From: an uncultured bacterium
GTDB taxonomy: Bacteria; Cyanobacteriota; Cyanobacteriia; Cyanobacteriales; JASJDA01
Length of the DNA stretch: 64,000 nt
NCBI GenBank assembly: GCA_964458305.1
Contig: CAYWIH010000002.1
Coordinates: 32,599-96,598 of the forward strand
Direction: 5' to 3'
Shown here in pieces: positions 10,809 through 33,683 of this stretch; position 1 is the stretch's first letter; each line of letters opens with the position of its first letter. Made by a program: the position numbers and the translations under genes. The notes beneath the pieces were generated by a model, which was given only the letters and a program-made list of their open reading frames with translations, was not told where the DNA came from and searched no databases.

Positions 10809-10844
10809 GTAAGTCACTATTTTTAGAAAGAGGGTTAATATTAA

Positions 10845-13389: not shown

Positions 13390-13528
13390 GAATAGCTAAT
13401 CTAAGCATTCTTAAGATGGAACAAAATTACTAGGTTAAAGAGAGATAGATCGATATAAAAGTTATCTATCTAGGATTATTAACCAAATACAGAAATTGAA
13501 TTATAACCTTCACCTCAATCGACTATAA

Positions 13529-14497: not shown

Positions 14498-14510
14498 CGG
14501 TCTTATTAAA

Positions 14511-17130: not shown

Positions 17131-18143
17131 AATTATTTTCTTTCGCTCGAGAGCTTTATTAAATTTATCTTTTTTTCACTACATATTCAGGATAAATACT
17201 GACTGAGGTGCTGTCAAACGAGGTGTGACGTTTCAGTAATCTCTGTTAGCAACCATTTTTAAGATCGCTAAGGAACAGCATTTAACAATAATGCATTTTG
17301 TCAATCAATGTCAGATGTCCTAACTTTTATTTTTACTGCTATTTCTCGGTTTTATTGTTAAGCAATGTTAAGAAAAATCCCCTTTTGCATAAAAGTCGGG
17401 CTTGTCGAGATAATAAACAATTAGATTAAGCTCTAATTTTCAAAAAAAATAAGAGTCTATCTGCAAACAAAATAATAATTAGATTTTCGGATTAACTGCA
17501 TTATTACTAATAATAATTTTATGTTGTTAATCTATCGTTAGTTACTTATAATAGGCTTAAATTGAGAATAAAAAGAGAAAAAACTAATTGCAAATCTTAA
17601 AAAAATAGCAAATTGCCAGCCAGTTGCAATGTATTACAATATACTTTGATAAAGGATTAATTGGGACAATTTATATGAAAAAATAACGCAAATTTAAAAA
17701 ACATCAAATCGATCGCCGATTGTAGCAAATAAAATGAATAGTCCCGATCCAGTCGATTATCAAAAATTGCTCGATCTCTTAAATGTCGATCGAAAACCAT
17801 AATTTAGTTAACTTACCACGATCGTTTTTGTCAAAAACTACTCATCAAATATCTTGCTTGAATTTCAGTTTGAGATAAAAAAAACGAGCTGACATTAGGC
17901 AATAATGAACCCAATACGATCGCTTGGCGAGAAGGCAGAAGCCGCTACTTTTAAATGTAGACTCGCGCGTTAACTTTGTAAACAAACAGAGGCAACAAGG
18001 GTGAGTTCAATATCAACTTAACAATTCTTACTTCCAGTAAAAGCAATTATTAAAGCCGCCATCCGAGAAGTCCAAATACTGTTCGATAACTTCTGAGGAG
18101 GTAATTAAACCGGCAGCAAAAACCTCAGCCTAGTAATAGTGCT

Positions 18144-18179
18144 AAAAGCTGAGTTCAGGTACGGTTTCAGCTTTTTTTT
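18144..18179 (+). terminator. Rho-independent terminator-like hairpin with no upstream ORF (attenuator candidate)
   Basis: AAAAGCTGA (18144-18152) pairs with TCAGCTTTT (18167-18175) around a 14-nt loop, inside a run of 8 T (18172-18179). Upstream CTGAGG (18093-98) and CCTCAGC (18123-29) can form competing stems. Confidence 0.5.
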
Positions 18180-18420
18180 GTCAATTTGTGCCCATCAAAT
18201 CATACTTTTTACTACCTTTTGACTAGCAAATTTACTCTTCTTAACATTAAGACCATACTTTTTCAGACAGACAAAATCGCAAATGCAAGAGAGTATAGTT
18301 AGTAACATTCATCAGTAAAAAGTTAGAGACATTCAGGAGAATAAATTTCTGCGAAAACTTGGAACAGACTACCTTGTAAAAAGTTAAGAGCACAGACAAT
18401 TTCTTATCGAAAGAAGAGCA

Positions 18421-18726
18421 ATGAAAACAAGTAAATTATTTTTAAACAAAAGCAAAATAGGTTTGCTAACGATCGTTTTTCTAAGTTTATTTCAGACCTC
18501 AACATTAGCAAAAGTCCCCGAAATTAACCAAATAAAAACATCAACTATAGAATCAAGTTCCGATCGAACTATAGCGCGCCGCAGATTATTCCGCGATCGC
18601 CGAGGACGCTGTTTTTTTATCAATCGCAACGGTCGTCGCGTTTATGTTCCCCGTCGTCGTTGTAGGATGCAAGAACGTCGTAGCAGATTCTCAAGCGATT
18701 TTAACAACAATCCCCTTTACTTATAA
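18421..18726 (+). CDS. Small secreted arginine-rich protein (hypothetical)
   Basis: Sec-type signal MKTSKLFLNKSKIGLLTIVFLSLFQTSTLA-K. The mature part is extremely basic, with three Cys (CFF, RRRCR) in RRRLFRDRRGRCFFINRNGRRVYVPRRRCRMQERRSRF. No recognisable family. Confidence 0.45.
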   Translation: MKTSKLFLNKSKIGLLTIVFLSLFQTSTLAKVPEINQIKTSTIESSSDRTIARRRLFRDRRGRCFFINRNGRRVYVPRRRCRMQERRSRFSSDFNNNPLYL

Positions 18727-18867
18727 GCCTCGAGATCTTGCTGTAACAAGCAGACTATTAACAAAGCCAAGTTTGATTTTACAGCACATAAAAAACCACT
18801 CAGCAAATTCGATCGAGGATCGATTAGCAAAAGTAGTCACAAAATACCATAATTTAGTTTACTTACC

Positions 18868-20562
18868 ATGATAGCATTTGCCAAAAAAACAACTATTAAA
18901 CAAGTTGTTCAATCTCAACTAGACACTAAAAAACTTGGGATAGTTGTAGGAGAAAAACCGTTAACCATTGAAGAAGTAGTTAAAGTCGCCCGCAATAATT
19001 GTCAAGTCAAAATCAGCGAAGATGTCAATCTCTTAAAAAGAGTACAGCAATCTTGCGATTACATTAACAACGCAGTAGAAACAGGAGAACCCGTTTACGG
19101 AGTTACTAGCGGCTTTGGCGGTATGGCTAACGTAGTCATTTCCCCGGAACAAGCCATTGAGTTGCAAAATAATTTGATGTTGTATCACAAAGTCGGGGCC
19201 GGAGCAAAATTACCACTAGCAGATATTAGAGCGGCGATGTTGTTGCGGATGAATTCTCACTTACAAGGAGCATCGGGAATTCGTCTCGAATTGATTCGAC
19301 GCATGGAGGTGTTCTTAAATGCGGGAGTTACCCCTCACGTTCCTGAATTTGGTTCGATCGGTGCTAGTGGAGATTTAACTCCTTTAGCCTATATTTGCGG
19401 TGCGATTACAGGATCTCACAAAAATTATCTAGTTGATTTTAACGGAGAAGAGACAGACGCACCCACAGCATTAGAACGTTTGGGCCTCTCACCGATGCAA
19501 CTCCAGCCCAAAGAAGGCTTAGCAATGATGAACGGGACTTCCGTGATGACAGGAATTGCCGCCAACTGCGTTTGGGACGCGCAAACTTTCTTATCCTTAT
19601 CAATGGGTGCTCATGCCTTAATGGTTCAAGGTATGAACGGAACTAACCAATCTTTCCATCAATTCATTCATAACTGCAAACCCCATCCCGGACAAAAATG
19701 GGCAGCAGCAACCATGCTAGAGCTGATAACTGGTTCTGAGCTAATTCGCAACGAATTAGACGGATCTCATGACTATCGAGGAAATCGACCGATTCAAGAC
19801 CGCTATTCTTTGCGTTGTTTGCCCCAATATTTAGGCCCGATCGTCGATGGGATCGAGCAGATCGCCGCGCAAATCGAGACTGAAATTAACTCCGTCACCG
19901 ATAACCCTTTAATCGACATCGATCGACAAGTTAGCTATCATGGCGGCAATTTTCTCGGTCAGTATATCGGTACGGGAATGGACAATCTGCGGTATTATTT
20001 AGGGTTGCTAGCCAAGCATTTAGACGTTCAAATTGCCATGCTAGTAGCACCAGAATTTAACAACGGATTGCCCGCTTCTTTAGTAGGAAATCCCGATCGC
20101 AGCGTCAATATGGGTCTTAAAGGGTTGCAGATAACTGGTAATTCTTTGATGCCACTTTTAAGCTTCTATGGCAATTCTTTAGCCGATCGTTTTCCTTCTC
20201 ACGCAGAACAATTCAATCAAAATATTAACAGTCAAGGATTTGGTTCGGCTAATTTAACCCGCAGCTCTTTAGAAATTGCTCGGCAATATATGGCGATCGC
20301 TTTAATGTTTGGAGTTCAAGCTGTCGATTTAAGGACTTATTTAATTAAAGGACATTACAACGCCACTGAATTTTTATCTCCAGCCACCAAACCGCTATAC
20401 TTAGCAATTCGCAATGTCATTGGCAAACCACCAACAGCCCAAAAACCATATGTTTGGAACGATGACGAACAATTTTTAGACGAACATATCGCTAAAATTG
20501 CTGCAGATCTTGCCGCACAAGGAGAAATAGTCGGAGCGATCGACAGAATTTGCCGGATGTAA
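18868..20562 (+). CDS. MIO-dependent aromatic amino acid ammonia-lyase (PAL/TAL/HAL family)
   Basis: 564 aa. MIO-forming triad in FGSIGASGDLTPLAYI. Also YGVTSGFGGMANV. Length and layout are like cyanobacterial PALs. Confidence 0.9.
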   Translation: MIAFAKKTTIKQVVQSQLDTKKLGIVVGEKPLTIEEVVKVARNNCQVKISEDVNLLKRVQQSCDYINNAVETGEPVYGVTSGFGGMANVVISPEQAIELQNNLMLYHKVGAGAKLPLADIRAAMLLRMNSHLQGASGIRLELIRRMEVFLNAGVTPHVPEFGSIGASGDLTPLAYICGAITGSHKNYLVDFNGEETDAPTALERLGLSPMQLQPKEGLAMMNGTSVMTGIAANCVWDAQTFLSLSMGAHALMVQGMNGTNQSFHQFIHNCKPHPGQKWAAATMLELITGSELIRNELDGSHDYRGNRPIQDRYSLRCLPQYLGPIVDGIEQIAAQIETEINSVTDNPLIDIDRQVSYHGGNFLGQYIGTGMDNLRYYLGLLAKHLDVQIAMLVAPEFNNGLPASLVGNPDRSVNMGLKGLQITGNSLMPLLSFYGNSLADRFPSHAEQFNQNINSQGFGSANLTRSSLEIARQYMAIALMFGVQAVDLRTYLIKGHYNATEFLSPATKPLYLAIRNVIGKPPTAQKPYVWNDDEQFLDEHIAKIAADLAAQGEIVGAIDRICRM

Positions 20563-20636
20563 CCTCAATAAAATCTATCTCCGAATGAGATAGATTATCC
20601 AGCAAAAATAAATTTAGATAAAGAGAATTTTCAGTC

Positions 20637-22148
20637 ATGAATATCGCGCAACATATAGAAAAAGCTTCTCAATTTTTACCTGACAAAACTGCATTAATTT
20701 TTGAAGATCGAGCTTACACCTACCAACAATTAGATCGCTTAATTAATAGACTCAGCAACGGCTTCAAGAAAAAAGGAATTCAAAAAGGCGATCGAGTAGC
20801 ACTTTTCTTACCAAATATTCCCGAATTTATTATTGCTTATGCCGCGATTTTAAAGCTCGGAGCAATAGCAGTTTCTCTCAATGTAATGCTCAAAAGCAGC
20901 GAAACCACCTACATTCTTAACGACTGCACCGCTAAAGCCATAATTACCACAGAACAACTTTGCGAACATATTAGCCCAGCAGACTTACCCTATCTCCAAC
21001 ATATTTTCGTTGCTGAAGCCAAAGCCAGTAAAGCAGTTAGTATCTATCAACTAATAATTAATGCTTCCCCCGAAGCCAAAGCAATAAAAATGCAACCATT
21101 AGATCCGGCTGCGATCGTCTATACTTCTGGAACTACTGGCTTCCCCAAAGGTGCAACGCTGTCCCACGGCAACATTATTTCCAATATGTACGCCCAAAAC
21201 CGTTGTTGCGAAATGACTGCAGAAGATCGCTTGCTGCTATACGTCCCTTTATTTCATTGTTTCGGTCAAAATGCCATTCTCAACTCAGGATTTAATATCG
21301 GTGCGACGATCGTATTGCAAGGCAGATTTAATTTAGAACGGATTTTAGAGGCGATCGCAAAAGAAAAGATAACCATGTTCTTCGGCGTGCCTACAGTTTA
21401 TATTAAGCTGTTAAATTCTAACTTCTGCAAATCCGATTTGAGTTCGGTACGCTTTTACTTTTCTGCAGCAGCATCGATGCCAGTAGAAATTGCTCGCCGA
21501 TGGGAACGAGAAAGTGGATTAAAAATTTACGAAGGATACGGTTTAACAGAAACATCTCCCTGCGCTTGTTACAACCACCCCAAAAAATACAAATTCGGAT
21601 CGATCGGCACTCCGATTGAAAACGTAGAAATGAAAATCGTCGATGGGGATGGTAAAGAAGTCGCCCCAGGAAGATTGGGTGAAATTGTCGTGCGCGGGCC
21701 TAATGTAATGTTGGGTTACTGGAATCGTCCTTTAGATAACGAAAAAGCAATCCGTAATGGTTGGTTTCATACCGGAGATATCGGACGTAAAGATGAAGAT
21801 GGCTATTTTTACGTAGTCGATCGACTCAAAGATATGATTAACGTTTCTGGATTTAAAGTATATCCGGCAGAAGTCGAAAACGCAATCTATCAACATCCTG
21901 CAGTCGCTGAAGTAGCAGTTTACGGAATTCCCGATCCAGTCAAAGGAGAAGTAGTTAAAGCCAATATTATCCTCAAACCTGGTTATACCCTCAGCGAAAG
22001 AGAAGCGATCGCCTTTTGTTCGGAAAAGATAGCTGCTTACAAACGACCTTATTCGATCGAATTTGTCGATTCGATTCCCAAAAATGCCACCGGAAAAGTA
22101 ACTAAATTAGTCTTGCGCCAAAAACAAGCTTCAGTTTTGGCCTGCTAA
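20637..22148 (+). CDS. Adenylate-forming acyl-CoA ligase (4-coumarate/cinnamate:CoA ligase-like)
   Basis: AMP-binding motifs YTSGTTGFPKGATLSH, GYGLTETS, TGDIGRKDEDGYFYVVDRLKD and the terminal PKNATGKV. Confidence 0.9.
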   Translation: MNIAQHIEKASQFLPDKTALIFEDRAYTYQQLDRLINRLSNGFKKKGIQKGDRVALFLPNIPEFIIAYAAILKLGAIAVSLNVMLKSSETTYILNDCTAKAIITTEQLCEHISPADLPYLQHIFVAEAKASKAVSIYQLIINASPEAKAIKMQPLDPAAIVYTSGTTGFPKGATLSHGNIISNMYAQNRCCEMTAEDRLLLYVPLFHCFGQNAILNSGFNIGATIVLQGRFNLERILEAIAKEKITMFFGVPTVYIKLLNSNFCKSDLSSVRFYFSAAASMPVEIARRWERESGLKIYEGYGLTETSPCACYNHPKKYKFGSIGTPIENVEMKIVDGDGKEVAPGRLGEIVVRGPNVMLGYWNRPLDNEKAIRNGWFHTGDIGRKDEDGYFYVVDRLKDMINVSGFKVYPAEVENAIYQHPAVAEVAVYGIPDPVKGEVVKANIILKPGYTLSEREAIAFCSEKIAAYKRPYSIEFVDSIPKNATGKVTKLVLRQKQASVLAC

Positions 22149-22199
22149 ATAATAGTTTTTTTTCACTTATCAAAAATTAAATTTAAAATTACCTGACCT

Positions 22200-23987
22200 A
22201 TGACCCTTCAATCGGATTCCAACTCTTCAGTTACAGTAGAGCCTTCATCTGGATCGTCAATTTTTTCCCACTCTAAATCCTCCGCCAATAGCCCGGCGAT
22301 CGCCAAAAATTCCCTTGCCAAAACTACAGTAGCAGAAGCTTTAGTAAAAATCTTCAATAAATTAGGAATTAACTCTGCTTTTGGAGTATCTGGCGGCGGT
22401 ATCGGCCCTTTGTGGGCAACTTTAGCAGCCAGTCCCATTCAAGTAGTACATTTTCGTCACGAAACTGGAGCAGCATTTGCCGCGATAGAATCATATTTTG
22501 CTAGCGATCGCCCGGTGGTAGTTTTTACGACTACCGGCCCCGGCATTACTAACGCCCTAACTGGATTGCTAGCTGCTAGAGGAGAAGGGGCTAAAGTAAT
22601 TTTAATCTCGGCTTATACCTCTTCAGGCAATCGCGGGCGATGGGCTTGTCAGGAAACTAGCAGCTACACCTTACCCCAAGAAGGAATTTTTACCTCCGGG
22701 TCTCTATTTGATTACGCAACTATTGTAGAAAGTGCCGATCGATTGCCAGAAATCTCGCGACGCTTAGCTATCGGTTTGACCCAACCAGGTGGATTTGTCG
22801 CCCATATCAGCGTTCCTACCGCAGTTCAAACCAGTCAAACTTCAGTATCGTTAGCACCCTTAAATTTCTCTCGCAGTTTGGCAACTGCTAACCAAGAAGC
22901 GATCGCTCAATGTGCTAAATGGATTTCTGAAAACTCCTGCGGGATCTGGATTGGCTTTGGCGCGCGCCAAGATGCCCGAGTTATCCGCCAACTAGCCGAA
23001 AAAACCGGAGCGGCAGTGATGTGTTCCCCTCGCGCTAAAGGAATTTTTCCCGAAAATCATCCTCAGTTTGTTGGGGTAACTGGTTTTGCCGGCCACGCTT
23101 CGGTATTGGAATATATGGAAAAGCACCGTCCTGAATGGATTTTAGTTTTGGGTACGCGTTTGGGCGAGCCTACTTCATTTTGGAATCCGACTATGATTCC
23201 GACACGAGGCTTCATTCAGGTAGATATCGACCCGAAAGTAGCCGGAGTTGCTTATCCCGATGTAGAAACTTATTCGATTCAATCTGAGATCGGAACTTTT
23301 GTCAAAGCATTATTGCAACATTTTCCCCAAGATCTCAAAAGATCGATCGGATCGCCTTTACCTCGACCGAAACTATTCAAAGCTAGTTCCCACACCAACG
23401 AATTAGTCAGACCAGCCGTACTGATGGCAGCGATTCAGCAACAAATCGTTAAAAAAAGCAATGCGATCGTGCTGGCCGATGCTGGCAACTCTTTTGCTTG
23501 GGCAACCCATTTTCTCAAATTCGATCGACCCTTACGCTACAGGATTAGCACCGGAGTAGGAGCGATGGGTCATGCAGCGACAGGGGTAGTAGGTGCAGCT
23601 CTAGCCTCTAATAATAAAGCAGTTGCGATCGTCGGCGATGGTTCGATGTTAATGAACTGCGAGGTGAGTACGGCAGTTAAATTAAGAGTTCGAGCAGTTT
23701 GGATCGTACTCAATGACGGTCGTTACAATATGTGCGCTCAAGGCGCAGCAATGCAAGGTTTTTCGGCAGTAGATACAGAAATTCCCGAGACTGATTTTGT
23801 CAAAATTGCCAAAGGTATGGGGGCTGATGGGATTCGGGTCTGCAAAGAATCGGAACTAGCTCCAGCAATAGAAAAAGCGATGGCTTCGGGCTTACCTTTC
23901 GTGGTGGATGTCACGATCGACCCCAGCCAAAAAGCACCGATTGGCAGTCGTATTACCAGTTTAAAAGCTCAAGGAGCAGAACTATAA
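22200..23987 (+). CDS. Thiamine-diphosphate-dependent enzyme (acetolactate synthase/acyloin synthase-like)
   Basis: PYR domain with catalytic Glu in VHFRHETGAAFAA. ThDP-binding motif IVGDGSMLMN...WIVLNDGRYNM. No small-subunit (ilvN-like) gene adjacent. Confidence 0.85.
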   Translation: MTLQSDSNSSVTVEPSSGSSIFSHSKSSANSPAIAKNSLAKTTVAEALVKIFNKLGINSAFGVSGGGIGPLWATLAASPIQVVHFRHETGAAFAAIESYFASDRPVVVFTTTGPGITNALTGLLAARGEGAKVILISAYTSSGNRGRWACQETSSYTLPQEGIFTSGSLFDYATIVESADRLPEISRRLAIGLTQPGGFVAHISVPTAVQTSQTSVSLAPLNFSRSLATANQEAIAQCAKWISENSCGIWIGFGARQDARVIRQLAEKTGAAVMCSPRAKGIFPENHPQFVGVTGFAGHASVLEYMEKHRPEWILVLGTRLGEPTSFWNPTMIPTRGFIQVDIDPKVAGVAYPDVETYSIQSEIGTFVKALLQHFPQDLKRSIGSPLPRPKLFKASSHTNELVRPAVLMAAIQQQIVKKSNAIVLADAGNSFAWATHFLKFDRPLRYRISTGVGAMGHAATGVVGAALASNNKAVAIVGDGSMLMNCEVSTAVKLRVRAVWIVLNDGRYNMCAQGAAMQGFSAVDTEIPETDFVKIAKGMGADGIRVCKESELAPAIEKAMASGLPFVVDVTIDPSQKAPIGSRITSLKAQGAEL

Positions 23988-24006
23988 ATTATTAAGGAGA
24001 TTGACA

Positions 24007-25158
24007 ATGAACTTTAAACCTGTAGGAATTAAGGCGATCGCCGTTACTTTTCCCAGCATCATCCGCACTAACGATTATTATCGAACTTATTACCCCGATT
24101 TAGTTGTCAAAGCAGAAGAAAAAACCCTAGCACGAACTTTTTCGGTAACTCAATCTAATTTTGACAATAAAGCCGCCGATATCTGGACTGAAGAAATGAC
24201 ACCATATTTATCAGATCCCTTTCGCGGTACTGTCGAACGTCGAGTATTTAGCCCCGAAGAATCTGCCCTTTCAATTTCCGATCGAGCCGCTCGAGATGTT
24301 CTCGAAGCAGCCAAGCTCGGCCCCGAAGATATCGATTTAATGCTGGTTGCTACGATCTTTCCCGATCGAGTCGGGCCTGGAGATGCGGCATTCTTGGCAC
24401 GGGAACTCGGTTTGCAAGGAGCTGCCTGGAATTTAGAATCTACTTGTTCGAGCGCGTTAGCAGCCTTACAAACTGCTGCGGCGATGGTTCGAGCCGGAGA
24501 ATATCGCAATGTGTTGGTGGTGATTTGTACTAACTACTCCCGGTTTACTGACAAAAACGATACTCTTTCTTTTCTTTCCGGTGACGGTGCGGGTGCTTTT
24601 GTAGTTAGTTCCCTCGAGGGCGATCGGGGCATACTCGGAACTCAAATTATCAATACTGCTTCGACTTGCGAAACTTTTTATAACGAACTAACCGCAGATG
24701 AAACAGGAAACCCGCAAATATTTATTAGAGCGCGTAAAGGTGCTGGAAAAATATTAGCAGAAACCGCAGTTCCATTAGTCCGAGAATGTTGTGAAAAGGC
24801 TGTAAAAGCTGCTGGTGTCAGCCTCGATGAAATTGATTTCTTTGCTTTCAATACTCCTACTGCTTGGTACACCAATGTTTGCACTCGGGCATTAGGAATC
24901 GATCGCGATCGCACCCTCAACCTCAACCCTTTATATGCAAACATCGGCCCGATGTTACCTGTAGCCAATCTTTATCACGGAGCAGAATCGGGGAAAATTC
25001 GCGAAAACGACCTAGTTCTGGTCTATACCATTGGTTCGGTATCGAATGCAGCCGCTAGCGTTATGCGCTGGGGCAAAGTAGCCCTCGGCCCCGCTCCCGC
25101 ACCGGCAATAACCTCAGCAGCACAGCTCGAGCGAAGTTTAGAAACCGCTCGCGTTTAA
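24007..25158 (+). CDS. KAS III (FabH)-like thiolase-fold enzyme, non-canonical active site
   Basis: AAGGAG RBS lies 7 nt before ATG 24007. Nucleophile Cys in WNLESTCSSALAAL. The HQAN position reads FAFNTPTAW. Asn-containing YANIGPM. 383 aa from this start. Confidence 0.8.
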   Translation: MNFKPVGIKAIAVTFPSIIRTNDYYRTYYPDLVVKAEEKTLARTFSVTQSNFDNKAADIWTEEMTPYLSDPFRGTVERRVFSPEESALSISDRAARDVLEAAKLGPEDIDLMLVATIFPDRVGPGDAAFLARELGLQGAAWNLESTCSSALAALQTAAAMVRAGEYRNVLVVICTNYSRFTDKNDTLSFLSGDGAGAFVVSSLEGDRGILGTQIINTASTCETFYNELTADETGNPQIFIRARKGAGKILAETAVPLVRECCEKAVKAAGVSLDEIDFFAFNTPTAWYTNVCTRALGIDRDRTLNLNPLYANIGPMLPVANLYHGAESGKIRENDLVLVYTIGSVSNAAASVMRWGKVALGPAPAPAITSAAQLERSLETARV

Positions 25159-25197
25159 TTTCTCTTTATCGCAAACAATATTTTGAGGAAAATAGTC

Positions 25198-26583
25198 ATG
25201 AAAAAAATAGACGGTTTTAAAACTCCCCACTGGTGGCAAACCCTTCAATTTGTCCTTAATAAAGTAGGCTATTTGGGAGCAGCAAAAGAGCGTTACGGTG
25301 GTGAGATCTTCACTACCCGAGTCTTTAGTGGCGATCCTGCCGTTTTTATCAGCAACCCAGAAGTAATTAAAGAGCTTTTCACCACTCACAGCAAACATCT
25401 TCAGCTCGATAATAAACTGACAAATTTTAGAAGACCCATTATGGGGGAAAACTCGATCTTTCTGCTCGAAGGAGAGCAACACGATCGCTATCGCAAGCTT
25501 TTGATGCCGATTTTTCGTCCCGATCGGATTAAAGTTTACGGGCAAATGATAAGTGAAACAACTAAAAAAGTTATCGATAAGCTGCCGACAGATAAAGTTT
25601 TTTCTCCTCTTAACGCCACCAATGAGATTACCTTAAATCTGATTATGGATATTGTTTTTGGTTGGTCAGATCGAGAACGGGGCGAACAATTTCGCAAAGT
25701 GTTATTAAAACTCGAAAAAGATGTTCGTTTTGTGCCTATCATTTATGCTAGCTTTTTTCCATCTCTGCAATGGAATTTAGGGCCGTGGAGTCCTTGGGGA
25801 TTTCTCATCGAGACTCGACAGCAAATGGATCGATTAATCCATGCAGAAATTCAAGCACGTCGCCAGCAACCTGAGACCGATCGACACGATATCTTATCAT
25901 TGCTTCTCTTAGCTCGCGATGAAGACGGCCAGCAGATGAACGATTCGGAGTTACTAGATAACTTAAGAACGCTGCTTTTAGCCGCTCATGGGACGATAAG
26001 TGGTGCTATGGCTTGGTCTTGGTATTGGGTTCATAAATATCCAGAAGTTCGCGATCGACTTATCGAAGAAATCGCTAGTCTCGGCGAGTCTCCCGATCCG
26101 ATCGCTATTTACCAATTGCCTTATCTTACAGCAGTTTGCAATGAAATCTTACGACTTTACCCACCCGATCCAGTAACGACAGTTGGTGCAAAGAGAGTAA
26201 TAGAGCCTTTCGAGCTGATGGGTTATAAATTCGAGCCGGGTATGTTTGTCTGCGCGTGCATCAAAATGTTGCATTATCGCGAAGATGTGTATCCAGAACC
26301 AAACAAATTCAACCCAGAGCGTTTTATAGAACAAAAGTTCTCGCCTTACGAGTATATGCCTTTTGGTGTTGGTGCGCGTCGCTGTATCGGTCAGGCTTTA
26401 GCCCAGTTCGAATTGAAGTTAGTTCTAACTACCATTGTCTCATCTTATCAACTCGAGCTTGCCGATAATAAGTTACCGCGTTCTTTTCCACCAGGAACTG
26501 AAGTTGCTCCTCTTACTAAAATGCTCAAAAAATCTCTTCGTCAAAATTCTCAGCCAAATAAAGCTTTAATCGAAGTTGGTTGA
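25198..26583 (+). CDS. Cytochrome P450
   Basis: Heme loop FGVGARRCIGQALA, ExxR (EILR) and I-helix AAHGTISGA. GAGGA RBS before ATG 25198. The N-terminus resembles cyanobacterial CYP110-type proteins (from memory). Confidence 0.9.
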   Translation: MKKIDGFKTPHWWQTLQFVLNKVGYLGAAKERYGGEIFTTRVFSGDPAVFISNPEVIKELFTTHSKHLQLDNKLTNFRRPIMGENSIFLLEGEQHDRYRKLLMPIFRPDRIKVYGQMISETTKKVIDKLPTDKVFSPLNATNEITLNLIMDIVFGWSDRERGEQFRKVLLKLEKDVRFVPIIYASFFPSLQWNLGPWSPWGFLIETRQQMDRLIHAEIQARRQQPETDRHDILSLLLLARDEDGQQMNDSELLDNLRTLLLAAHGTISGAMAWSWYWVHKYPEVRDRLIEEIASLGESPDPIAIYQLPYLTAVCNEILRLYPPDPVTTVGAKRVIEPFELMGYKFEPGMFVCACIKMLHYREDVYPEPNKFNPERFIEQKFSPYEYMPFGVGARRCIGQALAQFELKLVLTTIVSSYQLELADNKLPRSFPPGTEVAPLTKMLKKSLRQNSQPNKALIEVG

Positions 26584-26636
26584 TTAATTGCAGTAGTCAT
26601 TAAGTTTTTCGTTTTTTCTCAAAAGGTAAATTAAAA

Positions 26637-27764
26637 ATGTTCAAAATTTATTTCACTCTTCTCAATAAAATCTGGAAAAAATTTGGCTTTTCTGGGCCGT
26701 TCTTATTTTGGGGTTTATTGATACCGCTTCGTCTATCTTTTACTCATTTCACCTTATTTTTGGACAGAATATTTTTCCCAGGATACCGTAAGAAAAAGAT
26801 TGTCAATCCAGTTTTTATTATTGGTTGTCCTCGAAGTGGCACGACTTTTTTACACACATTATTGACAGAAACAAGAGATTTTTCTGTATTCGAGACTTGG
26901 CAACTTATTTTCCCTTCTTTGACAGCAAGAGCTTTGGTAAAACCAATAGTCAATCATTTAGTTAAAACTAATCGCTCCACGATTATGGATAAAAGTAAAG
27001 GTCATGAAATGTCTCTGAATAAAATAGAGCATGATGAATTTTTATTTTTACATAAAATCGAAATGTGTGGATTTAGATTTGCCTCTTTACTAGCAAAAGA
27101 ATTTGAAAATGGCACTAAAATACCAGAATTAGATATTCCCGATCGCCAACCAAAATATCTGCGCGATAAGTCAATGGATTTTTTCAAAGGTTGTCTTCAG
27201 CGACAGTTATATTACACGGGAAAAGATCGCCTCATCGCTCACGTTCATTTTTCTACTTTAAGATTGAAAACTTTGCTTAAGGCTTTTCCTGATGCTAAGT
27301 TTATCTATTTAGTTCGATCGCCTTACGAAGTTATTCCTTCTTATACTTCTTTCTTTACCAAGGTTGGTGCAACAAAGCAAGTGTTTTTTACACCAAAAGA
27401 TTCGTTATATCAAGAAGTTCTTCAGTATTATCGCTATTTCTACGAACTCCAACAAAATCAAGAAATTCCTCCAGAAAATTACACTGTTGTAAGATACGAA
27501 GACTTGTGTTCTAACCTAGAAGAAACTTTTGCCAAAATAGTCGCTTTTACCGGAATCAAACCGAGCCAAGCACTGAAAGAATCTGTCGAGCAAAAGAGTA
27601 AAAAACAAAAAAATTATCGACGCAAGCACAAAAATTTAACCCTAGAAGATTTGGGATTAACTAAAGAAAAAATAGCTGAAGATTTCTCGTTTGCTTTTGA
27701 GAAGTATGGCTGGAGCGAACCCCAAGCAAAAACTGAGAAAATATCCGTTAGCTCGGAATTATAA
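26637..27764 (+). CDS. Sulfotransferase with N-terminal hydrophobic anchor
   Basis: N-terminal hydrophobic stretch FSGPFLFWGLLIPLRLSF. 5'-PSB IIGCPRSGTTFLHTLL. 3'-PB YLVRSPYEVIPSY. Confidence 0.8.
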   Translation: MFKIYFTLLNKIWKKFGFSGPFLFWGLLIPLRLSFTHFTLFLDRIFFPGYRKKKIVNPVFIIGCPRSGTTFLHTLLTETRDFSVFETWQLIFPSLTARALVKPIVNHLVKTNRSTIMDKSKGHEMSLNKIEHDEFLFLHKIEMCGFRFASLLAKEFENGTKIPELDIPDRQPKYLRDKSMDFFKGCLQRQLYYTGKDRLIAHVHFSTLRLKTLLKAFPDAKFIYLVRSPYEVIPSYTSFFTKVGATKQVFFTPKDSLYQEVLQYYRYFYELQQNQEIPPENYTVVRYEDLCSNLEETFAKIVAFTGIKPSQALKESVEQKSKKQKNYRRKHKNLTLEDLGLTKEKIAEDFSFAFEKYGWSEPQAKTEKISVSSEL

Positions 27765-27794
27765 TCGCTCTTTCAGGAATATTATTCGAACGAT

Positions 27795-27840
27795 TTAGGG
27801 TATAAAAAAATAATTTTTTACAAATTTATACCCTAAGTTT
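27795..27840 (+). terminator. Hairpin/terminator-like element between the sulfotransferase and MATE genes
   Basis: Perfect 12-bp inverted repeat TTAGGGTATAAA (27795-27806) / TTTATACCCTAA (27825-27836) with an AT-rich loop, followed by GTTTT. Confidence 0.4.
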
Positions 27841-27876
27841 TCCAAACATCGCGATCTTTCAAATTAAGCACTAAAA

Positions 27877-29271
27877 ATGAAACCTCGACCACCAAGATTT
27901 ATCAAAGGCAAACTAACTGAAGATAGTATTAGTTCTCATTTAATTAAATTGAGCTGGCCGATGCTATTAGGAAGGTTAAACTTTATCGCCTTCAATATTG
28001 TAGATACCTTCTTTATCGCCCAACTGGGTACGAAACAACTAGCCGCAATGAGCTTTACTTTTCCTGCAGTTATGATTATTAGTAGCGTAGCTATGGGATT
28101 GGGAAATGCAAGTGGTTTAGTTATCGCTCGTATTATTGGAGAAGGCGATCGCAATAAAATTCAGCGCAGAATTACCGATAACTTGTTACTATCTCTAGTT
28201 ATTGGCATTATTTTAGGTTTAATTGCTTTAGTAACGATCGATCCATTTTTTAGTCTTTTAGGAGCTAAACCAGAAATTATTAATCTCATCCGAGAATACA
28301 TACCAATAATTTATATCGGCTCGATTTTTTCGATAGTTACTTTAACTGCAAATAATGCAATTCGTGCCTCTGGAAATACATTACTTCCCAGTGTATTAAT
28401 GATATTTTCTACTTTAATTAATTTTGTTCTCGATCCCTTATTTATTTTTGGCTGGGGTATTTTTCCTCGTTTAGAAATGCAAGGAGCAGCTTTAGCAACA
28501 TTAATTGCCAAGGCGATCGCTTTTATTTTATTCTTAATTATTCTCGATCGAGAAAAAAATATTGCATTTAATATCCCTAAATTCAAGGAACTTTTAAAAT
28601 CCTGGAAAAATAGCCTTTATCTTGCCATACCTATTATCGCTACTAACGCAATTAAACCTCTTTCTACAGCAATAATTATCGGTACGATCGCCGTTTATGG
28701 TTCTTCAGCTATTGCTGGGTTTGGGATTATTTCGCGAGTAGAAGGAATAGTATTAATAGTATTTTCTGCCGTATCAACAAGTGTCGGTTTGATCGTCGGA
28801 CAAAATTTTGGTGCTGGCAAGTTATTTCGCGTTAATAAAACCTTCTCGCTCGGTTCTCAATTTTGCTTGCTTTGGGGGATTTTTATGGCAATAATATTAG
28901 CCTTATTCTCTGGAAATATAGCAGCAGTTTTTAACAATAATTCTGAAGTTGTTTCTGTTGCGATCGCTTATTTTAAAATCGTTCCCATCAGCTATCCAGC
29001 TTTAGGAATTTTGATAATTTCTAGTGCTATTTTTAACGGTACGGCTAAACCTTTACCACCAGTTATCATGACTTTGACAAAAACTTTTGCGATCTACTTA
29101 CCATTAGCTGCAATTGGCAGCAAAATATTAGGAATTCAGGGAGTTTTTCTAGCTATTTGTTTGTCTAATTTGCTAATTGGGATATTAAGCTTTACCTGGA
29201 ATAAAATTAGTTTGAATCTTGTAGCAGAAAAAAAATCTATTTCTAGAAAATTCGCCGATCGGGTAAATTAA
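27877..29271 (+). CDS. MATE-family efflux transporter
   Basis: 464 aa, 12 predicted helices. N-terminal signature LIKLSWPMLLGRLNFIAFNIVDTFFIAQLG is typical of NorM/DinF-type MATE proteins. Confidence 0.85.
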   Translation: MKPRPPRFIKGKLTEDSISSHLIKLSWPMLLGRLNFIAFNIVDTFFIAQLGTKQLAAMSFTFPAVMIISSVAMGLGNASGLVIARIIGEGDRNKIQRRITDNLLLSLVIGIILGLIALVTIDPFFSLLGAKPEIINLIREYIPIIYIGSIFSIVTLTANNAIRASGNTLLPSVLMIFSTLINFVLDPLFIFGWGIFPRLEMQGAALATLIAKAIAFILFLIILDREKNIAFNIPKFKELLKSWKNSLYLAIPIIATNAIKPLSTAIIIGTIAVYGSSAIAGFGIISRVEGIVLIVFSAVSTSVGLIVGQNFGAGKLFRVNKTFSLGSQFCLLWGIFMAIILALFSGNIAAVFNNNSEVVSVAIAYFKIVPISYPALGILIISSAIFNGTAKPLPPVIMTLTKTFAIYLPLAAIGSKILGIQGVFLAICLSNLLIGILSFTWNKISLNLVAEKKSISRKFADRVN

Positions 29272-29337
29272 TTTAAACTCGAAAACTTAATAATATCGGT
29301 GTAATTTTAAATCCAATTCCCACTATCTCTAAGAAAA

Positions 29338-30504
29338 ATGATGATAAGCGAAAAAATCAAACAAATCGATCGACAATTAATCGAACTGATCGGCGAAAGA
29401 ATAAAACTTTTAGAGCGATCGGATGGTTCTTACCCCTTAGAAAATCCCGAGTTAATTCCTCTGCTCGAACAAGCTGGTATTCCCGAATTTGTTTGGAAAA
29501 ATTTAGCGATCGATTGTGCGGCTAGTTTAACAATTAAAGCTTCATCTTCTACGTTAAATAATAGGCGATCGAAACGGATAACTATTATTGGTGGAAAAGG
29601 AATGATGGGGCGTTTTTTCACAGCAAGATTATCTGCGGCCGGACACGATGTAAAAATTCTCGAATCTAATGATTGGGAAAGAGCAGAACAATTATTAAAT
29701 TCAGCAGATTTAGTATTAGTATGCGTGCCGATCGAATGTTCGATCGAAGTAATTAAAAAAGCAAGTAAATATCTTTCTCCTGATACTGCTTTAGCAGATA
29801 TTGCTAGTATTAAAAGTCCGATAGTCAAAGCAATGTTGGAATATCATAACGGCCCGGTCATGGGTTTGCATCCGATGTTCGGCCCGCAAATTAAGTCATT
29901 TTTAGGTCAAAAAGTAATCGTCTGTTCCGGGCGTGAAGATCGAGCTTTTCAATGGTTATTAGATCTGATTAAAAATGAGGGAGGTAAACTGATTTTTGCT
30001 ACTCCAGAAGAACACGATCGGATGATGGTAGATATTCAAGCAATTCGTAATTTTACTACTTTTAGTATGGGGGTTTTTCTTTCAGAAGAAGGAATAGATA
30101 TTAACCGCAGTTTGGATTTTTCTAGCCCTCTCTATCGCCATAATATTGCCGTAGTAACTCGTTTGTTCGCTCAGTCCGCACCCTTAATCGTAGATATTAT
30201 TTTAGCCACACCAGAGCGTCACCAAGCCATCTCTAAACTAGCAAATACTTACAGTCGTTTAGCTGAATTAGTAAACCAAGGCGATCGCGATGGTTTGATT
30301 TTAGAATTTCAGCGCGCTCAAAACTTTTTTGCTCGATCGATTCCCTGCGGTCTTAAAGAAAGCACTTATATAATTAATTCTCTCAATAATTTTTTAGCCG
30401 CTCAGGAACAAGAACAAAAACAAAAATATCAATTTTCACTCAATAATTGTCCCAGTAATTTTACAAAGATCTCTTCTCAGAAAACCCCGGCACTTTCTAA
30501 TTAA
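29338..30504 (+). CDS. tyrA: Prephenate dehydrogenase of the E. coli T-protein type, with a short, apparently degenerate chorismate-mutase-like N-terminus
   Basis: ITIIGGKGMMGRFFTARLSAAGHDVKILE ... GPVMGLHPMFGP ... SSPLYRHNIAVVTRLFAQ is collinear with the E. coli TyrA dehydrogenase domain. The N-terminal 75 aa keep only a helix-1-like EKIKQIDRQLIELIGERIKLLE. Confidence 0.8.
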   Translation: MMISEKIKQIDRQLIELIGERIKLLERSDGSYPLENPELIPLLEQAGIPEFVWKNLAIDCAASLTIKASSSTLNNRRSKRITIIGGKGMMGRFFTARLSAAGHDVKILESNDWERAEQLLNSADLVLVCVPIECSIEVIKKASKYLSPDTALADIASIKSPIVKAMLEYHNGPVMGLHPMFGPQIKSFLGQKVIVCSGREDRAFQWLLDLIKNEGGKLIFATPEEHDRMMVDIQAIRNFTTFSMGVFLSEEGIDINRSLDFSSPLYRHNIAVVTRLFAQSAPLIVDIILATPERHQAISKLANTYSRLAELVNQGDRDGLILEFQRAQNFFARSIPCGLKESTYIINSLNNFLAAQEQEQKQKYQFSLNNCPSNFTKISSQKTPALSN

Positions 30505-30650
30505 AATCGGGAGGATTAGTTATTACTAAATATATCAAAAAATTACGAGTGATAAAGACTATTTCACCTTCAATCTAGTTCTTTATAAGATAAGTATTTA
30601 AAGGGATTTTATACGAAGAAAAAATTTACCAACTCGTTGGAAATAAAGCT

Positions 30651-31985
30651 ATGAAAGATCTAAGCAATACCGCACCGCTCGAAAATCAAGAAACAAATCT
30701 AAGAACTGCTAATCCCAGCCAGATAAGCACCAATAAATTAAAATGGTTGATTCCAGGCCTATTAATAGTAACCTTAGCCGTAACTTTTCGGATAGTTTCA
30801 TCTAGATTTAACACCAGATCGGTTATTGATTTCTCAACGGTGACAGTACCTGCAAAAGAAAAACAATTGACCGTCAAAATTGAGGCTGCTGGCAGTATAG
30901 TTCCGAGTTACAGCGTTAATATTAGTCCAAAAAATATCGGACGTTTAACAGATCTTTATGTAAATCAAGGAGATGAAGTAAAACAAGGACAAATTTTAGC
31001 ACGGATGGACTCTTTTAATTTGCAAGCTCAAGCCAGCGAAGCTAAAGCAAAATTAAAACAAGCAGAAGCAGAATATACCAAAGTAATTAACGGCAACCGT
31101 ATTGAAGAAATTCGCAGAGCGCAAGCACAAGTAGAGTCCGATCGGGCCAAGGTAGAATTAAGCAATTTAGAAGTACAAAGATATCAAACCCTGGTCACAC
31201 AAGGTGCGCTCGCTCGACAAGAATTAGATCGCAAATTGAGCGAACATAAAGTAAATTTAGCCGCTTTAGAACGCTCAGAGCAACAATTAAAAGAATATAG
31301 TGACGGTTCGCGCAGCGAAGATATCGAGCTAACAAAAGCTAAAGTAGAAGCAGCAAAAGCACAATTAGAAGTAGTTAAAACCAATCTCGAAGAAACAGTA
31401 ATTCGCGCTCCATTTGACGGCATCATTTCTCAAAAATATGCTACCGTAGGCTCGATTATCACCCCCACCACTTCAGCTTCTTCTACCGCTTCAGCTACTT
31501 CCACTTCGATCGTGGCAATAACTTCCGGTTTAGAAGCAAAAATAAATGTCCCCGAAGCAAGTATTTCTCAAATAAAAACGGGCCAGCAAGTAGAAATTGT
31601 TGCCGATGCTTATCCTCAAGAGACTTTTACAGCAAAAGTCACACAAGTAGCCCCAGAAGCAGTAGTCCAAAATAATGTTACTTTCTTTGAGGTGAAATTA
31701 GAACTAATTGAAGGTCGATCGAAATTGCGCTCTGGGATGAACGTCGATGCCACTTTCATCGGCCAAACCAAACAAGCATTAACTATCCCGACAGTAGCGA
31801 TCGCCCTGCAAAACGGTGAAATGGGAGTGATGCTTTTAGACGAGGAAAATCAAGTTCAATTTCAACCCGTAACAGTAGGTTTAACCCAAAACGGCGAAAC
31901 TGAAATTCTCGATGGTTTGCAGTCAGGAGAGCGGGTATTTATTGATTCTCCCAAACAAAATAAAAGATCTTTTGGTAATAGGTAA
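30651..31985 (+). CDS. HlyD/DevB-type membrane fusion (periplasmic adaptor) protein
   Basis: N-terminal TM, lipoyl-like VNQGDEVKQGQILARMD, long coiled coil, then beta-barrel domains. 444 aa. Confidence 0.85.
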   Translation: MKDLSNTAPLENQETNLRTANPSQISTNKLKWLIPGLLIVTLAVTFRIVSSRFNTRSVIDFSTVTVPAKEKQLTVKIEAAGSIVPSYSVNISPKNIGRLTDLYVNQGDEVKQGQILARMDSFNLQAQASEAKAKLKQAEAEYTKVINGNRIEEIRRAQAQVESDRAKVELSNLEVQRYQTLVTQGALARQELDRKLSEHKVNLAALERSEQQLKEYSDGSRSEDIELTKAKVEAAKAQLEVVKTNLEETVIRAPFDGIISQKYATVGSIITPTTSASSTASATSTSIVAITSGLEAKINVPEASISQIKTGQQVEIVADAYPQETFTAKVTQVAPEAVVQNNVTFFEVKLELIEGRSKLRSGMNVDATFIGQTKQALTIPTVAIALQNGEMGVMLLDEENQVQFQPVTVGLTQNGETEILDGLQSGERVFIDSPKQNKRSFGNR

Positions 31986-32007
31986 TCTAAATAGGAGGTA
32001 AAATTCA

Positions 32008-33240
32008 ATGGGTGCAGATTTAAAAGAAAACCTAAACATGGCATTGCGAACTTTAACCGCCAACAAAATGCGTAATTGCCTGACGATGTTGGGGATGATT
32101 ATCGGTAATGCTTCAGTAATTGCAATGGTATCTGTAGGACAAGGTACTCAGAACGAAATTAAGAAACAATTTGAGTCTTTAGGGACTAATATTTTATTTA
32201 TCGTGCCAGGAGTGCAGCAAAGAGGGCCTCAAGCTGGAGCAGTTCAAGCAAATACTTTGTTGTTATCCGATGCCGAAGCGATCGCTAAAGAAGTTCCAGC
32301 AGTCAGTTACGTTGCTCCAGAAAAAATCGAACGTTTGCGTCTAGTTTATGGCGATCGCGATACGAATGTTAGCGTCACCGGTACTACTGAAACATATCCG
32401 CAAGTTAGAAATTCCGAAGTTGCTAAGGGTCGTTTTTTTAATACCGTAGAGGTTGAAAGTCTCTCTCGAGTAGCAGTACTCGGTAGCGAAACGGCTCGAC
32501 AATTATTCGGCACTCGCTCCCCGTTAAATGAAAAAATTCGCATCGGCGATCTCAGTTTTCAGGTAATTGGGGTGATGGCAGAAAAGGGTGCGGCCTTGGG
32601 TCAAAATCAAGATGAAGTAGCTTTTATCCCTATTGTGGTGATGGCTAATCAATTAAGCGGAAGAGATAACCTCAATACTAGCCCCACAGTACAGACTATT
32701 TCTGTTTCAGCTCGCGATCGATCTAGTTCTAGTGCTGCTCAATATCAAATTACTAACCTGCTCCGTTTGCGTCACAATATTTTAGATGGTGAAGATGATT
32801 TTACGGTTCGCAACCAGCAAGATTTGTTAAAAACTGCCAATAATGTGACTAATTTACTGATTTTGGTTTTAGGTGTGACGGCAAGTATTTCTCTAATTGT
32901 CGGCGGTATCGGTATCATGAATATGATGTTGGTATCGGTAACCGAACGTACCAAAGAAATTGGTTTACGCAAGGCTCTCGGTGCGACTGGTCAAGATATA
33001 TTAATACAGTTCAGTATCGAATCGATCCTTTTATCTACCACTGGAGGAGTTTTGGGTATTGTTTTGGGTGTGGGTGGAATTGTCTTAGTTGCTGCGGCAA
33101 GTCCTTTGAGTGCGATAGTTTCGGGTAATTCAATTTTGTTAGCTTTTAGTGTTTCTAGCAGTATTGGTTTGATATTTGGCATAATTCCGGCTCGTAATGC
33201 TGCCAATCTCGATCCTATTTTGGCATTAAGAAGTAGTTAG
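32008..33240 (+). CDS. ABC-transporter permease of the MacB/DevC (FtsX-domain) type
   Basis: AGGAGG RBS lies 8 nt before the ATG. N-terminus ALRTLTANKMRNCLTMLGMIIG, a MacB periplasmic domain, and C-terminal FtsX helices with ERTKEIGLRKALGA. Confidence 0.85.
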   Translation: MGADLKENLNMALRTLTANKMRNCLTMLGMIIGNASVIAMVSVGQGTQNEIKKQFESLGTNILFIVPGVQQRGPQAGAVQANTLLLSDAEAIAKEVPAVSYVAPEKIERLRLVYGDRDTNVSVTGTTETYPQVRNSEVAKGRFFNTVEVESLSRVAVLGSETARQLFGTRSPLNEKIRIGDLSFQVIGVMAEKGAALGQNQDEVAFIPIVVMANQLSGRDNLNTSPTVQTISVSARDRSSSSAAQYQITNLLRLRHNILDGEDDFTVRNQQDLLKTANNVTNLLILVLGVTASISLIVGGIGIMNMMLVSVTERTKEIGLRKALGATGQDILIQFSIESILLSTTGGVLGIVLGVGGIVLVAAASPLSAIVSGNSILLAFSVSSSIGLIFGIIPARNAANLDPILALRSS

Positions 33241-33241
33241 T

Positions 33242-33661
33242 TTAAGGCTGAATTATCGGACAAATAGTATCTGCTTTTGTGTTTTGTTTTGGTTGAGTTT
33301 CTGAAATTAAAGACTGTAATTTAATTTTGAGATCTTTTAATTGTTCGATGCGATCGTCTATTTCTTCAATTTTAATTTTAAGAGTCTGGCGAACTTTACT
33401 ACAAGGCATTTCTCCTCGATCGTGAATTTGCAGTAGCTGTCCAATTTCAGTGAGGCTCAAACCAAGACTTTGAGAGCGTTTAATAAAATTAAGTCGCCCA
33501 ACAATTTCAGGAGAAAAAAGCCTAAACCCTCCTTCTGTGCGCTTTAGGGCTTGAAGCAATCCCAATTTTTCATAATAGCGAATTGTTTCGATTGAAACCT
33601 TAGTTATTGAAGAGATTTCCCCGATCCGCAAGAGTTTTTCTTCTCGATCCGACATAAGCAA
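33242..33661 (-). CDS. MerR-family transcriptional regulator
   Basis: HTH LRIGEISSITKVSIETIRYYEKLGLL, a long dimerisation helix, and Cys residues at positions 87 and 134. It is the last gene of the minus-strand DUF4139 operon. Confidence 0.85.
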   Translation of the reverse strand: MLMSDREEKLLRIGEISSITKVSIETIRYYEKLGLLQALKRTEGGFRLFSPEIVGRLNFIKRSQSLGLSLTEIGQLLQIHDRGEMPCSKVRQTLKIKIEEIDDRIEQLKDLKIKLQSLISETQPKQNTKADTICPIIQP

Positions 33662-33683
33662 TTTTAATAAAAAAAATCAATTA

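Follow-up and report, generated by a model that had tools for sequence, protein, structure and literature searches.

A predicted cyanobacterin-type furanolide gene cluster with adjoining cytochrome P450 and sulfotransferase genes

Furanolides (cyanobacterin, nostoclides, maculalactones and enhygrolides) are a small, active compound class that comprises photosynthesis inhibitors as well as signalling, antibacterial and cytotoxic compounds, and only three cyanobacterial furanolide clusters have been linked to products. In the cyanobacterin (cyb) pathway, CybB deaminates L-tyrosine to 4-coumarate (PMC12395478), CybC forms the CoA thioester of this acid, CybE condenses 2-oxoisovalerate and 4-hydroxyphenylpyruvate to an acyloin, and CybF carries out O-acylation, a Morita-Baylis-Hillman-type ring closure and a 1,4-hydride shift (PMC12395478; PMC13288894). 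The supply genes of the maculalactone (mac) cluster encode a DAHP synthase and a chorismate mutase (PMC13288894, PMC9324945). Here we describe a cluster found in a 64,000-nt stretch of contig CAYWIH010000002.1 (hereafter 'the window'; all feature coordinates are window positions), which consists of eight plus-strand open reading frames (ORFs) at 18868-30504 (spacers of 13-112 bp) and a downstream exporter gene pair that extends to 33240. Orthologues of CybB, CybC, CybE and CybF (CybBCEF) are followed in this row by genes for a cytochrome P450 (P450) and a sulfotransferase (ST). As judged from sequence comparisons, 18868-33240 is likely to be a functional CybBCEF-type furanolide cluster, the product of which would be P450-oxidised, phenol-O-sulfated and exported.

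The furanolide core and its relation to the cyb cluster

The loci used for comparison were obtained by scanning a single genome for each GTDB species with an alignment of the KAS III (ketoacyl-ACP synthase III)-like protein. The CybF-type family was represented by 219 loci among these species representatives, and 80 were kept (counts over related loci refer to these 80, to which the mac and the nostoclide, ncl, loci do not belong); the four-gene block made of lyase, ligase, thiamine diphosphate (ThDP) enzyme and KAS occurs in about 60 of them. One locus (L009) belongs to the cyanobacterin producer [Scytonema hofmanni] UTEX 2349 (contigs named Tol9009) and encodes a DAHP synthase, lyase, ligase, O-methyltransferase, TPP enzyme, KAS III, NmrA-like protein, Rieske protein, flavin halogenase, second O-methyltransferase and tyrosinase, a content that fits the published eleven-gene cybA-K cluster (PMC8777810). 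The window lyase, ligase, ThDP enzyme and KAS are respectively 72, 66, 64 and 66% identical to their L009 counterparts and stand in the same order, and by these sequence measures the cluster is an intact member of the known furanolide (cyanobacterin-type butenolide) kind. An initial annotation of the window had set out the cyb core logic (lyase, CoA ligase, ThDP acyloin synthase and FabH-like furanolide synthase) in a form that agrees with the published accounts (PMC13288894, PMC12395478). Its eight co-directional, tightly spaced genes were recovered at the exact coordinates by the ORF calls, its family assignments (lyase, ligase, ThDP, KAS III-like, P450, sulfotransferase and MATE) coincide with the Pfam/NCBIfam ones, and all motifs that it quoted (GSIGASGDLTPLAY, TSGTTGFPKG, GDGS...LNDG, NLESTCSS, FGVGARRCIG, PRSGTTF and RSPYEVIPS) were found in the translations. 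The genes of the cluster and of the exporter pair are as follows:

18868..20562, + strand: aromatic amino-acid ammonia-lyase of the methylidene-imidazolone (MIO) type, CybB orthologue (Pfam Lyase_aromatic, 501 bits)
20637..22148, + strand: acyl/aryl-CoA ligase, CybC orthologue, predicted 4-coumarate-CoA ligase (Pfam AMP-binding and AMP-binding_C)
22200..23987, + strand: ThDP-dependent acyloin synthase, CybE orthologue (three domains, TPP_enzyme N/M/C)
24001..25158, + strand: KAS III-like furanolide synthase, CybF orthologue (ACP_syn_III; 66% identity to CybF)
25183..26583, + strand: cytochrome P450, CYP110-family by the names of its homologues, predicted tailoring oxidase (Pfam p450, 231 bits)
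26637..27764, + strand: sulfotransferase of the 3'-phosphoadenosine-5'-phosphosulfate (PAPS) type, predicted phenol O-sulfotransferase (Pfam Sulfotransfer_3, 110 bits, and also Sulfotransfer_1)
27877..29271, + strand: MATE efflux transporter (MatE; TIGR00797, 204 bits against a cut-off of 147)
29338..30504, + strand: T-protein-type prephenate dehydrogenase, here TyrA (PDH_N/PDH_C; PRK11199, 300 bits against a cut-off of 273)
30651..31985, + strand: membrane-fusion (periplasmic adaptor) protein (TIGR01730, 180 bits against a cut-off of 95)
32008..33240, + strand: MacB/FtsX-type ABC permease (Pfam MacB_PCD and FtsX)

The best solved structures for the lyase are those of the cyanobacterial phenylalanine ammonia-lyases (PALs) 2nyn and 2nyf (853-859 bits), and no NCBIfam lyase model was matched above its cut-off. 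At the position where 2nyn has Phe-Leu the window enzyme carries Tyr106-His107; Tyr-His is present in 44 of the 55 family lyases (CybB of L009 included) and Phe-Leu in 11. Since the Tyr-His dipeptide is common to the tyrosine-specific CybB, we predict a tyrosine ammonia-lyase (TAL) that would give a 4-coumaroyl starter. The CoA ligase (NF004837, 513 bits against a cut-off of 476) occupies the same position as the L009 ligase.

The ThDP gene lies directly upstream of the KAS gene (13-bp spacer) and, as annotated initially, has no IlvN-like ORF nearby; its nearest solved relatives are BbmA and CsmA (BbmA best, at 223 bits). A non-furanolide acyloin product (scytonemin-like or sattazolin-like), or a status of the KAS and ThDP proteins as primary-metabolism paralogues, would find support in the scores of the ThDP enzyme on the ScyA model NF035923 (904 bits) and on the NCBIfam 'ScyA-related TPP-binding enzyme' model (952 bits), and in the FabH Pfam domains matched by the KAS. 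Both ScyA-type scores, however, lie below the respective cut-offs (1020 and, slightly, 1000), and the ThDP gene is adjoined by the CoA ligase and KAS III-like genes, with no ScyB- or ScyC-like neighbour. The models for housekeeping enzymes are missed far more widely: the ThDP enzyme scores 193 bits on acetolactate synthase (TIGR00118, cut-off 538) and the KAS 117 bits on FabH (TIGR00747, cut-off 292), with 98 bits for the best solved FabH. When aligned to the Aquifex FabH, the KAS keeps Cys149 and Asn314 and has the catalytic His replaced by Asn284 (FNTP motif), a Cys/Asn/Asn pattern that does not vary within the family and that CybF of L009 also has (66% identity over 377 amino acids, aa, with the STCSS, FNTP, YANIGP and NLYH motifs common to both). 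In the grouping proposed at annotation as a refuting check, both proteins fell with the furanolide enzymes (64-66% identity to CybE and CybF, in the same gene order) and not with FabH or acetolactate synthase. Primary-metabolism FabH and acetolactate synthase were therefore rejected as identities (widely missed cut-offs, CybE/CybF orthology), and we regard the non-furanolide explanation as a whole as highly improbable.

The cluster ORFs are intact in three independent assemblies. A near-identical NCBI record (L082: JBHJGT010000068.1, GCA_050331515.1, 'MAG: Prochloraceae cyanobacterium') shows the same gene order at 99.4% nucleotide identity, and the ST and P450 sequences are also present at 100% identity on a 97-kb NCBI contig. 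As the ORFs are intact and synonymous codon changes exceed non-synonymous ones between the window and L082 (53 against 26), the cluster looks functional. The 83 coding mismatches between these two sequences are unevenly spread, in that the KAS gene (24001-25158 vs L082 7365-8519) takes 30 of them (12 non-synonymous codons) and the ST gene none, while the genes neighbouring the latter have diverged. Translation of the KAS and P450 genes may start at ATG codons (24007 for the KAS and 25198 for the P450, both called so in L082) instead of the upstream TTGs. Antisense ORFs were disregarded, being short and nested in coding sequence. No RNA element was detected in 16000-34500 by an Rfam scan at a permissive threshold, and the counts of promoter- and terminator-like signals did not exceed those of shuffled sequence.

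The sulfotransferase, the P450 and a variable tailoring slot

The ST gene is placed within the co-directional row, 53 bp 3' of the P450 gene and 112 bp 5' of the MATE gene. Its PRSGTT and RSPYEVIPS motifs (PAPS-binding) are invariant in 40 homologues, and its AlphaFold model (mean predicted local distance difference test score, pLDDT, 85.8) resembles most closely the mycobacterial sulfotransferases Stf1 (2zq5) and Stf9 (2z6v), with template-modelling (TM) scores of 0.61-0.65 and E 1e-10, followed by tyrosylprotein sulfotransferases. Motifs and modelled fold are thus those of a PAPS-dependent, Stf-like sulfotransferase. That the enzyme is membrane-anchored, as initially described, is not established by its hydropathy (best 19-residue value 1.35); its first 50 residues, which are conserved, form two helices in the model and may act as a membrane anchor.

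The nearest ST homologues (56-65% identity) reside in the metagenomic loci L084, L085, L086 and L090, all of furanolide type, and because of these contexts we do not consider the ST of the window to be an isolated oddity. Where the C-terminus of a P450 was sought upstream of the homologous gene, L086 showed that of a CM_1 protein and L084 non-coding sequence. More distant paralogues (~50% identity) occur in clusters with type I polyketide synthase (PKS), type III PKS, ICMT-methyltransferase, FMO and TauE genes (L087 4288-11167, L089 1-6621, L091 1223-12863 and L093 83-3030, with a TauE/SafE-family membrane protein), the gene content of which suggests uncharacterised sulfated alkylresorcinol-type products of Pleurocapsales-like cyanobacteria. 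The presence of orthologues in P450-less furanolide clusters and of paralogues in phenolic-lipid clusters favours a building-block phenol over a P450-made hydroxyl as acceptor, and on this comparative basis the ST is probably a true tailoring enzyme that O-sulfates phenols and acts independently of the P450.

In a neighbour-joining ThDP+KAS tree, the window groups with L014 (a metagenome-assembled genome of the Xenococcaceae) and L081 (an ENA metagenome), and this group is sister to a clade that contains L012, L043, L037 and L013. The accessory genes of these and other informative loci, after the core or on the fragment recovered (identities to the window proteins in brackets), are:

L081: P450 (69%), MATE and TyrA, without a sulfotransferase
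L012, L013, L043 and L037: CM_1, adaptor, permease, ATPase, P450 (45-49%) and MATE
L014: halogenase, secreted hypothetical protein of ~220 aa, CM_1, TyrA, TauE and a complete exporter
L170: halogenase, CM_1, two P450s, MATE, and a third P450 downstream of MATE
L090, core: DAHP synthase, lyase/ligase/ThDP (80%) and KAS (66%)
L090, after the core: halogenase, hypothetical protein, CM_1, ST (60%) and MATE (62%), without a P450
L085: CM_1, ST (56%) and MATE
L086: CM_1, ST (60%) and MATE
L084: ST (65%), TyrA (69%) and adaptor

MATE orthologues stand directly downstream of variable tailoring genes in L081, L085, L086, L090 and L170. The cluster family has, in other words, a variable tailoring slot directly upstream of the MATE exporter gene, occupied by one P450 (L081), two P450s (L170), an ST (L090, L085 and L086) or, in the window lineage only, a P450 together with an ST; among the loci seen, no other single locus joins the two. 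The set formed by P450, MATE, TyrA and exporter is not unique, since it recurs in the uncharacterised loci L081, L012, L013, L037 and L043.

Proteins listed by JGI as 'cytochrome P450 family 110', with which the comparison was made, share 44-49% identity with the P450 of the window, which reaches no NCBIfam cut-off. By convention, membership in a CYP family requires more than 40% identity to named members. Orthologues (45-69% identity) are found in the furanolide loci L081, L012, L013, L037 and L043. A different P450, with 24-25% identity to that of the window, lies between the lyase and ligase genes (at ~4600-5200 per locus) of the Nostoc-type loci L016-L028, L034, L036, L039, L044-L046, L050, L054, L055, L058 and L060-L062, from which we conclude that P450s were recruited to the furanolide family at least twice.

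The adjacency of the P450 and ST genes (53 bp apart) may also be read in terms of a transient sulfation, in which the ST would activate a hydroxyl (possibly one installed by the P450) as a leaving group in an elimination, a cyclisation or a rearrangement, so that an unsulfated, rearranged furanolide would result; the structural neighbours of the ST do include the CurM and olefin-synthase ST domains, retinol dehydratase and LGS1 ('sulfation-assisted ring formation'; PDB titles). These leaving-group enzymes, however, match the model with TM scores of only 0.29-0.34 as against 0.61-0.65 for Stf1/Stf9, the nearest ST homologues lie in furanolide clusters without a P450 (L090, and the CM_1-ST-MATE arrangement of L085 and L086), and the conserved adjacency of ST and MATE suits the export of an anionic end product. 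We accordingly give the transient role little credence and retain stable O-sulfation of the product as the preferred reading.

A P450 gene next to an Stf-type PAPS sulfotransferase gene is known from Mycobacterium tuberculosis, in which the Cyp128/Stf3 pair serves sulfomenaquinone formation (PMC7404182). JGI assigns the Stf3 function name to several homologues of the window ST (46-49% identity), a naming that hints at a possible orthology to Stf3. The substrate differs (the menaquinone side chain for Cyp128-Stf3, a predicted aryl butenolide for the window), and the recurrence of the ST without a P450 in the present family means that the order of hydroxylation before sulfation is not required here. 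By analogy, the mycobacterial precedent leaves sulfation of a P450-made hydroxyl open as a second option.

Several observations weigh against the overall reading as a functional, sulfating furanolide cluster. Homologues of the ST were found within 10 kb of none of the 80 genome loci; the closest long-contig relative, L081, has P450-MATE-TyrA without it, so that the clade can do without the gene, which may have been inserted recently; and its GC content at third codon positions (GC3) is 0.29, in comparison to 0.36-0.39 for the core genes. The window furthermore contains no PAPS-synthesis gene, P450 redox partner or exporter ATPase, and the ScyA-related score of the ThDP enzyme (given above) belongs to the same side of the balance. 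The GC3 values are part of a mosaic in which the genes from lyase through P450 show 0.36-0.39 and those for ST, MATE, TyrA and adaptor 0.26-0.30, the latter resembling the flanking genes. Absence from L081 and from all 80 genome loci, the low GC3 and the proximity of a polysaccharide locus with two sulfotransferases (at 6.5-17 kb of the window) would together fit an ST (and perhaps a P450) that is a passenger and acts on 4-coumarate, tyrosine, a lipid or the upstream exopolysaccharide instead. Yet the gene lies inside the co-directional row, its nearest homologues lie beside accessory genes of furanolide clusters in three or more further lineages, its sequence has stayed 100% identical in the window and L082 despite the divergence of the neighbouring genes, and short motifs are all that it shares with the two sulfotransferases encoded upstream. 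We hold the passenger explanation to be improbable and maintain that the ST is more plausibly a tailoring enzyme of the furanolide pathway. A derivation of the ST as a paralogue of the two polysaccharide-locus enzymes was considered separately and rejected, only short motifs being common.

Precursor supply, export and genomic surroundings

The assignment of TyrA to the E. coli T-protein type stands for its dehydrogenase part (PRK11199, as listed above) and not for the chorismate mutase domain, which is vestigial: the PRK11199 match covers model positions 95-370 only, and at the N-terminus CM_2 matches 22 residues (E 0.004, 17.7 bits against a cut-off of 27). The cyanobacterial arogenate-type model PRK07417 gave 46 bits (cut-off 290). 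Well over 30 of the 80 loci also encode TyrA homologues (55-73% identity), which fits a precursor-supply role; the enzyme would most naturally be read as a source of 4-hydroxyphenylpyruvate dedicated to the ThDP step.

As to the DevB/DevC exporter initially proposed to follow the cluster, genes for an adaptor and a permease are indeed present, but the adaptor scores 75 bits on the DevB model TIGR02971 (cut-off 129) and an ATPase gene is missing. Homologues of the adaptor (43-49% identity) and of the permease (62-67% identity) occur inside the furanolide loci L012, L013, L014, L037 and L043, in which the permease gene is directly followed by one for an ABC ATPase; no homologue of this ATPase was detected within the 64-kb window, and a convergent MerR gene (33242-33661) abuts the permease gene. 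This MerR gene and the ORF at 18421-18726 were considered as conserved cluster parts and rejected, as their homologues were found only in the near-identical L082; the ORF (101 aa, 141 bp upstream of the lyase gene) has a signal-like N-terminus, a very arginine-rich C-terminal half and no Pfam match. A secreted hypothetical protein of ~220 aa, conserved in most furanolide loci and often present in two copies (~70 tblastn matches in furanolide loci, e.g. L014 12726-13394, L090 8640-9299 and L085 1-417), begins with a signal-like segment and matches no Pfam family; it was not found in the window and may be the counterpart of the 'hypothetical proteins' noted for the mac cluster.

Directly upstream of the furanolide genes, a polysaccharide-type locus (6553-17130) encodes GT4 glycosyltransferases, a MurJ-like flippase (9426-10808), a Wzy-like protein (11884-13389) and two sulfotransferases (10845-11822 and 13529-14497), and its gene content indicates that it may be a sulfated exopolysaccharide cluster. 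On the minus strand, a phycoerythrin operon (47586-53908) comprises genes for two HEAT-repeat lyase-like proteins, two phycobilisome subunits, a linker, two ferredoxin-dependent bilin reductases and CpeS, which marks the host as a phycobilisome-bearing cyanobacterium that is not Prochloron-like, despite the Prochloraceae label of the nearest NCBI record. Also encoded in the window are a DUF4140/DUF4139 protein (35371-37695, minus strand) with a Ribosomal_L12 C-terminal domain inserted at residues 384-446, a second DUF4140/DUF4139 protein adjoining it (33684-35264), and an RTX calcium-binding repeat protein (40900-41901) in a region of unusually high GC skew (0.27 for 40001-42000).

Proposed pathway and comparison with described clusters

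On the assumption that the assignments above hold, the T-protein-type dehydrogenase would convert prephenate to 4-hydroxyphenylpyruvate; the Tyr-His-type ammonia-lyase would turn tyrosine into 4-coumarate and the ligase this acid into 4-coumaroyl-CoA (by orthology to CybB and CybC); the ThDP enzyme would join 4-hydroxyphenylpyruvate and a second 2-oxo acid to an acyloin acid (by orthology to CybE); and the KAS III-like synthase would O-acylate the acyloin and close the butenolide (by orthology to CybF). The P450, putatively of the CYP110 family, would then oxidise the scaffold, the Stf-like sulfotransferase would O-sulfate a phenolic hydroxyl (most likely one derived from the tyrosine-derived building blocks), and the MATE pump together with the adaptor/permease pair may export the anionic product. 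The initial statement that halogenase and methyltransferases are absent agrees with the ORFs of the cluster, and a search found no halogenase homologue anywhere in the window. Because a halogenase, O-methyltransferases, Rieske oxygenase, tyrosinase and NmrA-like reductase are all lacking, we expect a simpler furanolide (polyphenolic, oxidised and sulfated), probably a new sulfated member of the known compound family.

Such sulfation might serve self-protection and export, with the polyphenolic furanolide being masked as an aryl sulfate, exported by the MATE pump and unmasked outside the cell. Cyanobacterin, to which the masked product would be related, is a photosystem-II inhibitor, and the producer is itself a phototroph. 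We consider this masking function unlikely; if true, the product would be the first furanolide known to be sulfated, and the mechanism a novel form of self-resistance for an allelochemical of cyanobacteria. A related possibility, likewise held to be unlikely, is the creation of a new scaffold with sulfate as the leaving group.

Aspergillus provides examples of sulfated aryl butyrolactones (butyrolactone I sulfates), which arise by an unrelated pathway. For the furanolide class, a tailoring set of P450 (putatively CYP110) and sulfotransferase is not known to be described, and none of the papers searched mentions furanolides together with a sulfotransferase, in line with the initial view that this combination is undescribed. 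The papers on cyb, mac and ncl make no mention of a sulfotransferase or a P450 (PMC12395478, PMC13288894, PMC8777810, PMC9324945), and sulfation, on which the furanolide papers searched are silent, has been recruited into the slot upstream of MATE in several lineages. The cluster is a tailoring variation within a known and widespread cluster kind and not a new kind of system, which makes it a good genome-mining lead. It is also a compact expression target (~9 kb from lyase to ST, 18868-27764; 11.6 kb through MATE and TyrA) that could give water-soluble sulfated furanolides as well as a phenol sulfotransferase for the existing chemo-enzymatic furanolide platform.

Among the described systems, the clusters for maculalactone (mac, Nodularia sp. 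NIES-3585) and nostoclide (ncl, Nostoc punctiforme), which were compared by their published descriptions, share with the window the four signature enzymes and the presence of shikimate-pathway supply genes, and the respective papers mention neither a sulfotransferase nor a P450 in them (PMC13288894, PMC9324945). The benzyl groups of the maculalactones are unsubstituted, which implies a PAL-type lyase for mac, whereas the window lyase carries the TAL-type dipeptide. The uncharacterised Pleurocapsales-type and metagenomic loci (L081, L014, L012, L013, L043, L090 and L170), to which the window is nearest in the ThDP+KAS tree, resemble it in their P450 (45-69% identity), MATE, TyrA or CM_1, and adaptor/permease genes, and some of them (L090, L085, L086 and L084) also in the ST; the relatives keep the exporter ATPase and the secreted protein of ~220 aa, both of which the window lacks. 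With the cyb cluster (Tolypothrix sp. PCC 9009 / Scytonema hofmanni UTEX 2349) the window has in common the four core genes and their order, the Tyr-His dipeptide of the lyase, the Cys/Asn/Asn pattern of the synthase and a dedicated gene for aromatic-precursor supply (a prephenate dehydrogenase in the window, a DAHP synthase in cyb). The halogenase, O-methyltransferases, Rieske oxygenase, tyrosinase and NmrA-like CybG are confined to cyb, whereas the P450 (putatively CYP110), the sulfotransferase, the MATE pump and the adaptor/permease pair are additions of the window.

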